The notes under the pieces are model-generated. The model saw only the letters and a list, made by a program, of their open reading frames with translations, did not search any database and was not told the DNA's origin. This document shows, in pieces, positions 40 through 8,663 of a DNA stretch of 8,663 nucleotides. The DNA is taken from IMG/VR virus record IMGVR_UViG_2690316149_000023. The stretch is one strand, 5' to 3'. This DNA comes from a virus. Lineage: Duplodnaviria > Heunggongvirae > Uroviricota > Caudoviricetes. Each line of letters begins with the position of its first letter. Within the stretch, counting starts at the first letter, position 1. Both the position numbers and the translations under genes were made by a program.

Positions 40-402
40 GGGGCTGATTCTGGATTCGACGGGATTTGCGAAACCCAAGGTGCATGCCGAGGGGCGGTTG
101 GCCTCGTAAAAAGCCGCAAAAAATAGTCGCAAACGACGAAAACTACGCTTTAGCAGCTTAATAACCTGCTTAGAGCCCTCTCTCCCTAGCCTCCGCTCTT
201 AGGACGGGGATCAAGAGAGGTCAAACCCAAAAGAGATCGCGTGGAAGCCCTGCCTGGGGTTGAAGCGTTAAAACTTAATCAGGCTAGTTTGTTAGTGGCG
301 TGTCCGTCCGCAGCTGGCAAGCGAATGTAAAGACTGACTAAGCATGTAGTACCGAGGATGTAGGAATTTCGGACGCGGGTTCAACTCCCGCCAGCTCCAC
401 CA
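40..402 (+). ncRNA. ssrA: tmRNA (SsrA, 10Sa RNA), complete 363-nt mature form
   Basis: Begins GGGGCTGATTCTGGATTCGACGGG and ends the tRNA-like domain with GGTTCAACTCCCGCCAGCTCCACCA. The internal tag reading frame at 129..161 (GCA AAC GAC GAA AAC TAC GCT TTA GCA GCT TAA) encodes ANDENYALAA-stop, the canonical enterobacterial degradation tag. Recognised from memory of the E. coli sequence. Confidence 0.95.
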
Positions 403-561: not shown

Positions 562-948
562 ATTACCTGCGGCAACACGCTATCCCTCTTCGTGTTATGG
601 GATGGAATTCCTTTTTACCTTCATTGGTACTTTCGGATACCAGATAACACCATTACCTATTTGACCAATGGCAGCGAAGCTGGTTTAAATAACCTCTCTA
701 GCAAACAAGTACAACTAAGTTAAGCGGCCAAAAAAAATCGCAATAAAACGTGCAATTACATTAACTAAGTAGGACGTTTTTAACACAAAAACATCGATTA
801 AAAAACGCACTGTGACAAACACTGAAAAAACAAGCATCACACACATTTTTTATTCATGTTTATCAATATGTTAAAATATAACCTTACTAATCTTGAACTC
901 ATCATCCGCTAATGTAGTTATATTATAAATAGCGCAGTGTGACACTCA

Positions 949-2457
949 ATGAAACCATCCATAGAACAACTTCTACATATCTACGGGCCGATGTCCTCAT
1001 CTGCCTTAAGAGAAAAACTGATAGCCAATGGCCTAACAGAAGTTAACGCCAGACAGCGAATCTCCCGCGTTGGAGGTGATGTTCAACGTTTTACTCATTT
1101 TTCTTTGCCCAAAAATGAAGCATTTCTCTATCTGACAAAGGACTATAACTCTCGTCGATATTGGATTGCATTGCTTGAAAGTCATGTAAATGCAAGAACA
1201 GTCTATGCTCACACCTTTTTCGCTTTCCACCCTTATCAAGGGGCGATCCCGACATATCTTTTTAGCAAGGTTTCAGGGAGTCCGGACAAACTGAAGGGAC
1301 ACATTGCGTCAAGCCGTCTTGAAGCGCAATTGCTTAAAGGTTCAGTTCTGCGTAGGGAAGTTGATGTCGTTTTGGGGGATTGTCTTGTTACTTACATAAA
1401 TAATATTAACGGGGTAACGGATACCCAACATGTCCGAAACCAATTGCTGGTTGAAGATATTCTCATTAAAGGTGTAGCTGACTGGATTAAACACAATAGC
1501 CTTGGCAGCTTTAATAAGGTCCAAGTCCGTAACTCTCAGAATATGCCTTCATTTAGCCATCACCATTGGGACATATGTGCTCCGTCATATATTATGCCTT
1601 TAGCAACAGTACAAAAAGGTGAAATGAGTAATGGCTTCATTGTTGCAGATGTCATATACAATGATTTAGATAGCAAAAGCATCCAAACCTATCTCACGAA
1701 AGTACAGCGATGCAGAAATATGCGAAATACTCGCCCGTTTCTAGCTATGCTGATTGCAGAACGTTTTGATCCAGAAGCCTTTCGCCTTGCGAAACAAGCT
1801 GGTGTAATGGCTACAACAGTATCTAACCTACTTGGTCAAGACATTTCAGCACTACTGTCCAGTTTATTAAATACTCTTAATCGTGCCAGTGCTATTGCGG
1901 CAGCAAACCCAGAAAAAATCAACGAACTATTTAAAGGACTTACGAGGATTGAAGGCGCCGCAATCAATATAAGAGGCGTAATGTTTGAAATGTTAGTTGG
2001 TCACATCGTACTGAAAACCCAAAATGTCAGCACTGTGGACTTGAATAAACAAATCAGTACCGAGGCAGGTAAGGCTGAAATAGATGTGATTGGTTTTAGA
2101 GGCGAAGCAGAAATTAAGTGCTACGAATGTAAAGGCTATGAAGTTAAGCGACTAATTTCAGTCGAAATGATCGAAAAGTGGCTCGAACGAGTTCAACGCA
2201 TCAGAAAATTCTACAGTCAGATTCATGTGTACCGTGACCGAAAAATGACTTTTTCATTCTGGACCTCATCAGATTTTGAACCTGAAGCACTTGAGCTGCT
2301 GCTTCATCAGAAGCAAAGAAATACAAAAATATCATTAGACTGGAAAAATGGACGTGACATTCTTTCCATTGTTAAGGAAGACAATCTGAAATCAATTGCA
2401 GATGTTCTTCAGGAACATTATCTTCGACACCCACTGGCTCCTGATGCAGATATGTAA
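949..2457 (+). CDS. hypothetical protein, 502 aa, no recognisable family; possible N-terminal winged-helix-like region and a C-terminal PD-(D/E)xK-like motif (tentative)
   Basis: Longest ORF in the window, with no competing ORF on either strand. Codon usage is AT-rich (about 37-40% GC on sampled lines, against about 52% in the tail-fibre part). It follows about 350 bp of very AT-rich upstream sequence. Start codon at 949 has only a weak Shine-Dalgarno; an alternative start is Met15 at 991. Tentative motif: D379 ... E388-I-K390 / E393-C-K395 inside EIDVIGFRGEAEIKCYECKG (nt 2077..2133). Confidence 0.8.
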   Translation: MKPSIEQLLHIYGPMSSSALREKLIANGLTEVNARQRISRVGGDVQRFTHFSLPKNEAFLYLTKDYNSRRYWIALLESHVNARTVYAHTFFAFHPYQGAIPTYLFSKVSGSPDKLKGHIASSRLEAQLLKGSVLRREVDVVLGDCLVTYINNINGVTDTQHVRNQLLVEDILIKGVADWIKHNSLGSFNKVQVRNSQNMPSFSHHHWDICAPSYIMPLATVQKGEMSNGFIVADVIYNDLDSKSIQTYLTKVQRCRNMRNTRPFLAMLIAERFDPEAFRLAKQAGVMATTVSNLLGQDISALLSSLLNTLNRASAIAAANPEKINELFKGLTRIEGAAINIRGVMFEMLVGHIVLKTQNVSTVDLNKQISTEAGKAEIDVIGFRGEAEIKCYECKGYEVKRLISVEMIEKWLERVQRIRKFYSQIHVYRDRKMTFSFWTSSDFEPEALELLLHQKQRNTKISLDWKNGRDILSIVKEDNLKSIADVLQEHYLRHPLAPDADM

Positions 2458-2686: not shown

Positions 2687-3241
2687 CTAATCCCTGCCTA
2701 CAGGAAATTTTCGGTATAGTGTTGACACTCCTACATCATAAATTAATGCTACGCGCTGACGCGTTTCTCCTGCAGCGATTAGTCTCCCTGCCTGCGCCCA
2801 CTGCTCATCCGTTAGTTTTGGCTTACGTCCACCAATTCGTCCCTGTGCGCGAGCAGCTTCCAGTCCAGCTTTTGTTCGTTCAACAATCAGTTCACGCTCC
2901 ATTTCAGCCAGGGCACCCATCACATGAAAGAAAAAGCGCCCCATTGGGGTACTAGTATCAATTGAATCCGTCAGACTACGAAAGTTGATGCCTCGTTCGC
3001 GCAACTCCTCAACCAGAATGACCAGATGCCGCATACTACGCCCCAGCCGATCCAGCTTCCAGACAACCAGAGTGTCACCTGCCGATAATGTCCTGAGCAG
3101 TTTTTTCAGTCCAGGCCTTTCGGACTTTGTACCGCTTATCTTGTCTTCAAAAATCAGCTCGCATCCTGCACAGTTCAGCGCATTACGTTGTAGATCTGTG
3201 TTCTGGTCATTTGTTGACACACGTACATAGCCAATAAGCAT
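2687..3241 (-). CDS. pin: site-specific DNA invertase, small serine recombinase of the Gin/Pin/Hin/Cin family (184 aa)
   Basis: N-terminus MLIGYVRVSTNDQNTDLQ with the catalytic Ser in the VRVSTNDQ motif; conserved core LVVWKLDRLGRSMRHL and FFHVMGALAEMERELIVERT; C-terminal HTH region (ALIYDVGVSTLYRKF). Start at 3241 is preferred over the ORF-track start at 3277 because an AGGGAG Shine-Dalgarno sits 7 nt upstream of the 3241 ATG and family N-termini begin MLIGY. The symbol is family-level only; I cannot tell pinE, pinR, gin or cin apart from memory. Confidence 0.93.
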   Translation of the reverse strand: MLIGYVRVSTNDQNTDLQRNALNCAGCELIFEDKISGTKSERPGLKKLLRTLSAGDTLVVWKLDRLGRSMRHLVILVEELRERGINFRSLTDSIDTSTPMGRFFFHVMGALAEMERELIVERTKAGLEAARAQGRIGGRKPKLTDEQWAQAGRLIAAGETRQRVALIYDVGVSTLYRKFPVGRD

Positions 3242-3267: not shown

Positions 3268-6135
<2,868 letters not shown>

Positions 6136-6138
6136 TCC

Positions 6139-6442
6139 ATGCATCGTATAGACACGAAAACCGCGCAGAAGGATAAGTTCGGCGCGGGTAAGAACGGTTT
6201 TACCCGTGGTAACCCCCAGACCGGCACACCTGCCACCGATCTGGATGATGACTACTTTGACATGTTGCAGGAAGAACTCTGCAGCGTGGTGGAGGCATCC
6301 GGTGCCAGCCTGGAGAAGGGGCGGCATGACCAGCTGCTTACCGCGCTTCGTGCGCTGCTGTTAAGCCGCAAGAATCCGTTTGGCGATATCAAATCTGATG
6401 GCACGGTGAAAACGGCTCTCGAAAACCTTGGTTTGGGAGAAG
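6139..6442. repeat. inverted repeat arm A (304 bp): fibre constant region plus crossover site
   Basis: Reverse complement of 8360..8663; identity checked at both ends and through identical N-terminal protein sequence. The true extent may be longer, since the partner arm runs off the window edge. Confidence 0.85.
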
Positions 6443-6900
6443 GTTCGGCATTACCCGTTGGTGTGCCTGTTCCGTGGCCTTCCGCCACTCCGCCAACGGG
6501 GTGGCTAAAATGTAACGGAGCAGTATTTTCTTCTGAAAAGTACCCAAATCTGGCAAAGGCTTACCCAACATTAAAATTACCAGATTTACGCGGTGAATTT
6601 ATTCGTGGCTGGGATGATGGGCGCGGGATTGACTCTGGTCGTAACTTATTATCTGCACAGAATGATGCAATTCAGAATATTGTTGGTTCTTTTGGGCGTA
6701 CCCAGCTTTTTAGAGACGTACTTAGTTCAGGGCCATTTAGTCAACATGGGCAAGTATTATCTACAGGTCTAAAGGAAGCCGAAATTATTGAGGGTTATGG
6801 CGCTTATAACTGGACATTCGACGCATCTCGCTCAGTTCGCACAGCATCTGAAACCCGCTCCCGTAACATCGCCTTTAATTATATTGTGAGGGCTGCATGA
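6139..6900 (+). CDS. tail-fibre protein (constant N-terminal region Sc fused to variable C-terminal receptor-binding region Sv1), 253 aa
   Basis: The N-terminal 101 aa ([17 protein letters not shown] ... [23 protein letters not shown] ...) resemble the conserved baseplate-attachment N-terminus of Mu S / e14 Stf-type fibres. The C-terminus carries the PWP...GWLKCNG...[17 protein letters not shown] motif. The reading frame runs straight through crossover site 2, and the stop overlaps the start of the downstream assembly gene (ATGA). Confidence 0.9.
6416..6441. other. invertase crossover site 2 (26 bp), inside the fibre gene at the constant/variable junction; direct orientation relative to site 1
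   Basis: CTCTCGAAAACC-TT-GGTTTGGGAGAA fits the Gin-family site pattern. The inner half is identical to site 1 and the whole site is identical (as reverse complement) to site 3. Confidence 0.8.
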
Positions 6901-7458
6901 TAAGTAAAGCTGTATTAAATAATGAACTCATCGCCACAAAGGCCGGAGACATTACCGTTTATAATTATGATGGTGAAACACGGGAATATATTTCCACATC
7001 AACTGAATATCTTGCTGTGGGTGTTGGTATCCCGGCATGTTCCTGTTTAGATGCTCCTGGCTCATATAAAGCTGGTTATGCAATTTGCCGTTCTGCAGAT
7101 TTTAACTCATGGGAATATGTGCCAGACCATCGCGGTGAAATCGTCTATAGCACCGAAACAGGAGAATCAAAAGAAATCACAGTTCCGGGTGATTACCCTG
7201 AAAATACAACCACTATCGCCCCGTTAACGTCATACGATAAATGGGATGGTGAGAAATGGGTGACCGATACTGAGGCACAGCATAACGCCGCAGTAGACGC
7301 GGCAGAAGTACGGCGCCAGTCACTGATTGATGCTGCTATGGCTTCCATTAGTCTGATTCAGCTGAAATTGCAGGCCGGGCGGAAGCTGACGCAGGCAGAA
7401 ACAACCCGGCTTAACGCTGTGCTGGATTACATTGACGCGGTGACTGCAACAGATACCA
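6428..7458. repeat. direct repeat copy B (1,031 bp), apparently identical to 3308..4338
   Basis: See copy A. Confidence 0.85.
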
Positions 7459-7502
7459 GCACCGCGCCGGATGTCATCTGGCCTGAACTACCGGAGGCGT
7501 AG
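6897..7502 (+). CDS. tail-fibre assembly protein (chaperone) U1, 201 aa
   Basis: Start is coupled to the fibre gene stop. C-terminal region ([51 protein letters not shown]) is typical of Tfa / gpU / gpG-family chaperones. The 3' end overlaps the convergent U2 gene, as in Mu G and P1 C segments. Confidence 0.9.
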
Positions 7503-7919: not shown

Positions 7920-8663
7920 TTACCGTCCAATGATTAACGCTGAGACGCTGGTATCTGAAGGAAAGGCTGCATTCAGTGGTTTGTCGACTTTGAACACAAT
8001 CGTATTATTCCCCCTGACAGCGGCAAAAGAACAAACCGCCGTCGCGTATGAACCTGTAATATTACTGGATACACCACCATAAGCTGTTGTTGATACCAGA
8101 GGGATAACGCCCAGCACCTTATTAGGAAATACAAAGGGCAATGTGGCTGTGGCAATATAAGACTTATTAGAACCTGTAATGGCATAAGCATTATCAGTCA
8201 TTCCATTCATCGCCACTGGACCGCTTATACTTACAGTAACCATCTGAATGATTAGCCCGTCAGGTTGACGAATCACAAAATTTCCATTGCCACCAGTAAC
8301 CGTCCAGAAAGACATATCAGGGATTTGGTTTTCCCCGTTGCCCACATTTCGTTTTGCCGCTTCTCCCAAACCAAGGTTTTCGAGAGCCGTTTTCACCGTG
8401 CCATCAGATTTGATATCGCCAAACGGATTCTTGCGGCTTAACAGCAGCGCACGAAGCGCGGTAAGCAGCTGGTCATGCCGCCCCTTCTCCAGGCTGGCAC
8501 CGGATGCCTCCACCACGCTGCAGAGTTCTTCCTGCAACATGTCAAAGTAGTCATCATCCAGATCGGTGGCAGGTGTGCCGGTCTGGGGGTTACCACGGGT
8601 AAAACCGTTCTTACCCGCGCCGAACTTATCCTTCTGCGCGGTTTTCGTGTCTATACGATGCAT
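7920..8663 (-). CDS. tail-fibre protein, second full-length copy (same constant N-terminus Sc, alternative variable C-terminus Sv2), 247 aa
   Basis: The first 101 codons are nucleotide-identical (as an inverted repeat) to 6139..6441. After the crossover site the sequence switches to a different Gly/Ser/Thr/Asn/Val-rich C-terminal domain ([35 protein letters not shown] ...). The window ends exactly at its start codon, so upstream context is not visible. Confidence 0.9.
8360..8663. repeat. inverted repeat arm B (304 bp visible, window-limited)
   Basis: See arm A. Confidence 0.85.
8361..8386. other. invertase crossover site 3 (26 bp), inverted orientation relative to sites 1 and 2
   Basis: TTCTCCCAAACCAAGGTTTTCGAGAG is the exact reverse complement of site 2. 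Confidence 0.8.

Follow-up and report, generated by a model that had tools for sequence, protein, structure and literature searches.

A candidate self-contained nuclease cassette with a conserved upstream box in the cargo slot of an e14-like prophage

What kind of gene occupies the end of a prophage between ssrA and the invertase, and what does it do there? We addressed this question in IMG/VR virus record IMGVR_UViG_2690316149_000023 (Caudoviricetes), whose 8,663 nucleotides we call the window. At 949..2457 (+, stop codon included) the window carries a gene for a 502-aa protein, which an earlier reading made from the letters alone (the sequence-only reading) had proposed as an undescribed single-gene defence or effector gene. 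Our analysis describes a stand-alone nuclease of mobile elements, unusual in its tandem nuclease-fold architecture (winged helix, winged helix, nuclease-fold domain, PD-(D/E)xK nuclease) and in the conserved cis-element that precedes it. The reading that we favour, with moderate confidence, is that of a self-contained, autoregulated, mobile single-gene nuclease cassette, which most likely protects its host or carrier from phage or plasmid nucleic acid.

The gene itself is real and under strong purifying selection. It starts with ATG, it is the sole long open reading frame (ORF) of that stretch, as had been noted, and its dN/dS lies at 0.06-0.08 (0.064 in comparison with the Salmonella orthologue, 0.082 with that of Morganella); homologues and a structure model add to this evidence. 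Its GC content is 0.409, and 0.349 at third codon positions, against 0.512 on the ssrA side, 0.491 in the invertase gene pin and 0.497 in the rest of the window, which is close to the difference of about 38-40% against about 52% that had been estimated by eye; the upstream DNA (600-948) is indeed even more AT-rich, with a GC content of 0.335. No significant match came from scans of the protein against Pfam, NCBIfam, PHROGs and PADLOC, and our literature search found no description of the family or of the box sequence described below. The family appears to be uncharacterised and is missing from PADLOC 2.0 (2023), Pfam, NCBIfam and PHROGs, in agreement with the proposal of an undescribed gene, and current annotation tools overlook it.

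The domain organization was derived from a structure model of the protein (predicted local distance difference test score, pLDDT, of 90.3) and from a family alignment of 43 diverse homologues, to which all the statements on residue conservation refer. A first winged-helix domain (aa 1-80; 949..1188, +), whose recognition helix holds the conserved residues A34, R35 and R40, lies where the sequence-only reading had placed one; that reading missed a second winged helix (aa 81-155; 1189..1413, +), seen in model and alignment, with conserved G98 and P112. It also missed the middle restriction-endonuclease-fold domain (aa 159-300; 1423..1848, +), which linker helices separate from the C-terminal PD-(D/E)xK nuclease domain (aa 337-477; 1957..2379, +). 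Invariant positions are distributed over the whole protein (R40, F59, W179, Y214, G229, D234, K251, G285, G296, L310, G336, D379, E393 and W411), and E347, C394 and K395 are near-invariant, with E347 and K395 kept in at least 90% of the members.

The C-terminal domain has both the alpha-beta-beta-beta-alpha-beta core fold of PD-(D/E)xK enzymes and their E...D...(D/E)xK catalytic motif, in the form E347...D379...E393-C-K395 (codons 1987-1989, 2083-2085, 2125-2127 and 2131-2133, +). A nuclease core had been suspected here by eye around D379 with either E388-x-K390 or E393-x-K395; the second pair is the conserved one, and E388-x-K390 is not conserved. The HEPN-like pattern suggested at R419-H426 did not hold either, since it is not conserved and falls inside helix 405-424 of the nuclease domain, and the Walker A and DEAD motifs, both looked for in the protein, are absent as stated. 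In the family profile, the catalytic residues line up with the nuclease motif of Card1 in a weak PDB sequence match; apart from this, a PDB sequence search with the whole protein returned chance matches only. Individual family members give weak, convergent matches to NERD, Mrr_cat, DUF4143, DUF234 and PDDEXK_11. Structure prediction followed by a structural-neighbour search, which had been proposed as a check, recovered nuclease folds whose best neighbours are all DNA endonucleases; no solved structure with the same overall architecture was found (Foldseek TM<=0.26).

These matches raise the question of the substrate. ZwsA (Zowangsin) is a stand-alone NERD-domain, single-protein defence nuclease that cuts phage RNA, and its E...D...ExK site is spaced nearly like that of the 502-aa protein (bioRxiv 10.64898/2026.04.06.716636). 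The C-terminal NERD/Mrr-like domain might accordingly cut phage RNA as ZwsA does: the spacing E..32..D..13-14..ExK fits E535, D567, E580 and K582 of ZwsA, weak NERD matches occur in 5 of the 43 members, and RefSeq gives distant plasmid homologues the NERD label. However, ZwsA is longer and its accessory domains (VHS, DUF647 and S4) differ, in the order VHS-DUF647-NERD-S4, in a comparison made by description only (bioRxiv 10.64898/2026.04.06.716636), and the best structural neighbours of our protein cut DNA. We give an RNA-targeting defence nuclease little credence.

The middle domain shares the PD-(D/E)xK core fold but fails to show the canonical D...(D/E)xK motif: the strand with D234 reads ADV(x), without a lysine at +2, and the preceding strand has no conserved Asp, with D208, Y214 and K251 kept instead. 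It is nonetheless more conserved than any other part of the protein (E169, W179, D208, Y214, G229, D234 and K251). Its profile has no sequence relative in the PDB, where the search returned EF-hand noise only, and a comparison of the middle and C-terminal domains as recent duplicates gave a weak 45-column hhalign match with a probability of 9%. The domain may hold a variant active site, act as a pseudo-dimer partner, or bind a ligand or DNA. NucS/EndoMS ranks near the top of the structural matches for both nuclease-fold domains, and this match, the missing canonical motif and the operator-like box would all suit a DNA-binding regulator or a NucS/EndoMS-like repair factor of the mobile element, in which the nuclease folds serve binding or structure recognition. 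Such a role is hard to reconcile with the conserved catalytic tetrad of the C-terminal domain, with a patchy distribution confined to mobile cargo (8 of 5,426 complete E. coli genomes, in each of which the gene is annotated as 'hypothetical protein'), and with the lack of conserved adjoining target genes; we consider it the least probable of the explanations weighed here.

Special attention was given to the AT-rich DNA upstream of the gene, in which the sequence-only reading had not seen a conserved box. When the E. coli, Salmonella, Morganella and Pantoea loci are compared, their only common non-coding sequence consists of two short elements in the last ~165 bp before the gene. In the window, these elements are a proximal box, TATAAATAGCGCAGTGTGACA (924..944, +), which ends 4 nt before the ATG, and a distal site, GCACTGTGACA (807..817, +), which precedes the proximal TGTGACA by 127 bp (about 12 helical turns). 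No match other than the distal GCACTGTGACA and the proximal GCAGTGTGACA occurs in the 8.6 kb of the window, and the region from 787 to 948 (+) represents the regulatory region that moves with the gene between unrelated mobile elements. The consensus TATAAATAG(C/A)G(C/T)AGTGTGACA, or a near variant of it, precedes the start codon in 14-15 of 16 loci picked by protein homology alone, which include Myxococcus, Henriciella, Sphingomonas, Acinetobacter and small plasmids, with proteins down to 25-30% identity with that of the window.

We then scanned one genome per species, 185,579 species in total, for the 20-mer core TATAAATAGMGYAGTGTGAC. There are 90 exact copies, when ~4 are expected by chance (596 Gb, two strands). 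In 79 of them, an ORF that matches the family hidden Markov model with E<=6e-26 starts 6-91 nt downstream, and six further copies carry a gene whose locus end is cut, which is shortened, or which the ORF rule missed, bringing the count to 85 of 90. The hosts of these boxes include Alpha-, Beta- and Gammaproteobacteria, Firmicutes, Bacteroides, Cyanobacteria, Acidobacteria, Planctomycetes, Nitrospinota, Saccharibacteria and others; therefore, the box is essentially exclusive to the family and far better conserved than the protein. Four of the remaining five loci keep the distal TGTGAC and the exact box without a family gene downstream; they could be remnants, or their promoters could have been taken over by other genes. 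The 20-base core is also a practical search handle, given that 85 of its 90 matches lead to a family member.

The distal element follows the same pattern. A TGTGAC(A) on the same strand, 95-160 bp upstream, is present in 51 of 88 loci (~1.4 expected), and the distances between the distal and proximal sites cluster near 109, 121, 130, 143 and 154 bp; a Rayleigh test of the spacing peaks at a period of ~11 bp, a signal that kinship of the loci may inflate. Conserved features upstream of the box are a T at each of -1 and -3, and an A-tract spanning -31 to -27. A Shine-Dalgarno sequence follows the box in loci where box and ATG are farther apart. It is absent from the enterobacterial copies, whose predicted leader, from the likely start to the ATG, measures only ~12-14 nt, so that a near-leaderless translation start is possible. 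An Rfam search of the leader and upstream region found no match, and the fold of the leader is unremarkable (z -0.5). Readings of TGTGACA as a CRP, LexA or Pho-box site were rejected for lack of the second half-sites, and a transposon-end reading was rejected for lack of a downstream or inverted copy of the box.

The exclusiveness of the box could also be explained if the box were the substrate of the enzyme, as for a mobilising nickase or cutter, or a homing or Type IIS-like endonuclease acting at TGTGACA sites. In favour of this, the box is exclusive to the family and far better conserved than the protein, the fold resembles FokI and N.BspD6I (winged-helix recognition modules plus a cleavage domain), homology between unrelated carriers starts just upstream of the distal site, and remnants of the regulatory region occur without the gene. 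Nevertheless, the two sites stand ahead of the gene and on the same strand, with no downstream match and no inverted terminal copy, and target duplication was not seen. A consensus -10 element, suitably spaced from the start codon, overlaps the box, for which a promoter and operator is the simpler explanation, and we regard a box-acting enzyme as improbable.

How would a promoter-operator of this kind work with the protein that it precedes? In the mechanism that we propose, the box would act as a host-independent promoter, with TATAAA(T) as its -10 element and the A-tract as an UP-like element, and transcription would start near A936/G937, leaving a very short leader. One or both winged-helix domains of the protein would recognise GCA(S)TGTGACA at two operators, O1 at the transcription start and O2 at the distal site, and DNA looping between O1 and O2 would give negative autoregulation. 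We propose autoregulation because only the gene's own product is present in all the hosts to read the box, and because the recognition helix with A34, R35 and R40 is the most conserved feature of the N-terminal part. Looping could keep a potentially toxic nuclease low in any host, independently of copy number, which would make it safe to carry also on multicopy plasmids and in hosts of other phyla that it reaches by transfer. As for the effector part, the C-terminal domain would cleave invader DNA, with the middle domain as pseudo-dimer partner, regulatory module or second site. Self could be told from non-self in either of two ways: the nuclease would recognise modified DNA, in the manner of Type IV enzymes such as McrA, which is found in the equivalent slot, or it would be activated when infection occurs.

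The distribution of the family bears on what such a cassette is for. Full-length homologues of ~500 aa form 92 clusters at 90% identity and, with E<=1e-3, at least 724 clusters at 50% identity, 289 of them with E<=1e-30; the family occurs in Proteobacteria, Firmicutes, Bacteroidota, Cyanobacteria, Acidobacteria, Planctomycetes and Saccharibacteria. Among viral contigs, an 18-mer scan of IMG/VR identified two prophage contigs with the gene, both copies of one E. coli prophage gene, and one further match by chance. Every homologue context that we examined is a mobile element (prophages, integrative and conjugative elements (ICEs), Tn7-like elements or plasmids), and no neighbour or cognate methyltransferase is conserved among these contexts, more than 12 of them independent. 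For example, the homologue stands between tail fibre and integrase in a lambda-like prophage of Morganella, with integrases alongside on a plasmid of Pantoea, with ArdC and integrases in an ICE-like region of Salmonella, and next to an insertion sequence (IS) element in Myxococcus. In Henriciella it is found in an ICE, straight after a type I restriction-modification (R-M) operon and ahead of ArdA; in Hydrogenovibrio it is the first cargo gene of a Tn7-like element, with Wadjet nearby; in Victivallis it comes straight after an integrase and is followed by a methylase/HATPase/HNH cluster; and in Sphingomonas it adjoins Gabija in an ICE. One further locus has a serine recombinase, toxin-antitoxin genes and IS66, and another is a prophage moron region.

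Defence genes are enriched next to the box-bearing loci, and Gabija is often the immediate neighbour: the 147 ORFs flanking these loci include 7-8 GajB (best E 9e-233) and ~5 GajA/OLD-like genes, along with TraI, ArdC, resolvase, integrase and ParB. On plasmids, tblastn identified homologues in 357 cases (187 in Klebsiella and 85 in Escherichia), of which 193 are conjugative; the distant plasmid homologues, of ~26% identity, are the ones that RefSeq labels as NERD proteins. On ColE1-type plasmids of 3.6-4.7 kb (pKP121-4, pGY1) the homologue is the only large ORF. On IncF(K) plasmids of Klebsiella and Citrobacter the distant homologue (~26% identity) belongs to a fixed block made up of a HEPN nuclease, a 259-aa hypothetical protein, the homologue, a DUF4238 protein and a 96-aa hypothetical protein, which spans 5466-10005 and 6483-11006 in two loci and in which none of the five genes matches PADLOC 2.0; on IncF plasmids the homologue lies near ccdAB and partition genes.

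This abundance on plasmids, including those on which it is the sole large ORF, and the vicinity of ccdAB and partition genes are what one would expect from a selfish stability or competition module of a plasmid or prophage, killing cells that lose the element, or excluding or degrading rival replicons. The box would then be a tight autoregulatory element of the toxin-antitoxin type and the winged-helix part a built-in 'antitoxin/repressor'. Two facts argue against it. First, there is no separate labile antitoxin and no conserved partner. Second, the gene is also chromosomal cargo of Tn7-like elements and ICEs and fills prophage moron slots beside bona fide defence systems. We consider a stability module unlikely, although it is the strongest of the alternatives to a protective cassette.

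It is important to note that several points weigh against the protective, autoregulated cassette that we favour. The defence role is a candidate one, proposed from computation; no defence model of PADLOC 2.0 (2023) is matched significantly by the protein, and there is no homologue among 50,697 sequenced phage genomes. The binding of the box by the protein itself is suggested by co-conservation only, and a host factor or a role at the RNA level could be responsible instead; the periodicity of the spacing is perhaps inflated, as many of the loci are related. Finally, the cassette model does not account for how the nuclease spares the host genome, and the related NERD-type nuclease ZwsA cuts RNA, not DNA.

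A bolder version of the same reading, which we put forward tentatively as clearly the less probable of the two, holds that the family is a hitherto unrecognised, phylum-spanning class of one-gene immune cassettes, which would join a tandem-nuclease effector and its repressor in one protein and carry a near-invariant 21-bp promoter-operator and a phased distal TGTGACA. Because the promoter-operator is carried along, the cassette would be expressed safely in any new host. In its boldest form, recognition of TGTGACA by the winged helices would also guide the nuclease, giving a sequence-guided restriction free of any methylase. Should the gene serve defence, a widespread single-gene system would join those known, with hundreds of carrier plasmids in Klebsiella, E. 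coli and Salmonella; and if the fusion of repressor and nuclease, with a box that outconserves the protein, is what it appears to be, it would be an unusually clear case of a portable, host-independent control circuit.

The position of the gene in the prophage agrees with the cargo context that had been proposed for it. The prophage is e14-like: its ymfQ region is 97% identical to that of K-12 e14, and pin and the tail-fibre segment are ~89% identical to e14, with homology ending at the 3' end of pin. The pin-type serine invertase (2687..3241, -; Pfam Resolvase and HTH_7; 88.6% identity to e14 pinE) marks the cargo slot and, as described earlier, is convergent with the 502-aa ORF. Since the gene order in e14 is ymfQ-stfP-tfaP-tfaE-stfE-pinE-mcrA-attR, mcrA, the gene of the Type IV restriction enzyme McrA, fills the exact slot of the 502-aa gene. 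In O157:H7 TT12B (locus 4089-4862) and in strain YZ22PE244 (locus 4088-4861), the slot next to pin holds a GIY-YIG gene that matches the PADLOC PD-T4-3 model (E 2e-140), adjoined in YZ22PE244 by a gene for an OLD-type 'ATP-dependent nuclease'; in strain 1217KP the post-pin slot holds an autotransporter. Pin-like sequence is present in 2,591 of the 5,426 genomes, and the DNA found here beyond pin in 8 only. The post-invertase end of e14-like prophages is thus a cargo hotspot in which nucleases recur (McrA, PD-T4-3 and the 502-aa gene). It also resembles a defence hotspot.

On the other side of the gene, ssrA (tmRNA; ARAGORN) occupies 40..402 (+), and its 3' end, 375-402 (+), is presumably the attachment core from which the prophage DNA extends, as similarity to the prophage end of strain FT130 starts at 375. 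A strong terminator-like hairpin (530-553; 10 pairs and a T-run) is located in prophage-derived DNA ~130 bp past ssrA and is probably a replacement ssrA terminator brought by the element. In strains FT130 and A2, the end made up of the gene and pin adjoins the pao genes, and the genes on the far side differ. FT130 has a copy of the ssrA 3' end (locus 11776-11803; the last ~28 bases, ...ttcaactcccgccagctccacca) beside the 502-aa gene, near pao and not near ssrA; this copy is presumably the attachment core, and it implies a rearrangement or tandem islands in strains of the FT130/A2 type. Just past it, FT130 carries a 564-aa ABC/OLD-type ATPase (locus 9477-11171, -), which matches the models of NsnB, AriA, Old and GajA. 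Beside this OLD/AriA-like ATPase lies an ORF of 94 aa (locus 11219-11503, -); the two are probably a further defence module.

The rest of the window shows a scrambled invertible tail-fibre region, in which 3268-4338 corresponds to 6388-7460 and 5572-6441 to 8361-8663, and the C-terminal segment of the tail fibre and its assembly gene are present in two copies. An IS3-family element (4365-5539, -), with orfA (5192-5539, -; HTH_Tnp_1) and orfB (4365-5072, -; rve), lies inside a tail-fibre assembly gene, and its insertion fused the assembly-gene frame (3777-4727) to IS sequence. The block of ymfQ and the tail-fibre N-terminus is inverted relative to FT130, so that two copies of the constant tail-fibre N-terminus face each other.

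With regard to known systems, the protein is closest by fold to Mrr/AF1548-type nucleases, its layout recalls FokI and N.BspD6I, and its position parallels that of McrA and PD-T4-3. Like Mrr and other Type IV enzymes, it is a solitary nuclease without a cognate methyltransferase; unlike Mrr, it has two winged helices and an additional non-canonical nuclease-fold domain, and it gives no match to Mrr_cat (PF04471) at E<=1, with 3 of the 43 members matching weakly (best 2.5e-6). For NERD (PF08378) the picture is mixed: the window protein gives no match, five of the 43 members match weakly (1.5e-4 at best), and RefSeq applies the NERD label to plasmid homologues of ~26% identity. The resemblance to FokI and N.BspD6I is limited by a poor overall superposition (Foldseek TM<=0.26) and by the absence of sequence similarity, and no cognate methyltransferase adjoins the gene in the window or is kept in the homologue loci. 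McrA of e14 and PD-T4-3 of O157:H7 are single-gene phage-restricting nucleases that hold the same slot, from pin to the prophage end, in closely related e14-like prophages; their folds (HNH and GIY-YIG) are unrelated, they are not homologous to the 502-aa gene, and the likeness is positional only.

Among defence effectors, Shedu (SduA) has a profile (SduA/DUF4263) that the window protein does not match. The only PADLOC match is to LmuA of Lamassu, which is weak (E 0.0073) and restricted to residues 368-485, within the nuclease domain, and the gene has no SMC-like LmuB partner beside it in the window. From Card1, Can2 and Cap4, only the nuclease parts match: the window protein has neither CARF nor SAVED, and its N-terminal 305 residues are two winged helices and a nuclease fold. 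Compared with the effectors of Shedu, Card1/Can2, Cap4 and HamA, the 502-aa gene has no partner gene and no significant PADLOC match. The closest parallel for its control is found in the Controller (C) proteins of R-M systems and in the winged helix-turn-helix proteins BrxR and CapW, which restrain a dangerous defence gene after transfer by binding operators in its promoter. In contrast to these, the presumed repressor would here be fused to the nuclease itself, with a putative operator that is near-invariant across phyla.

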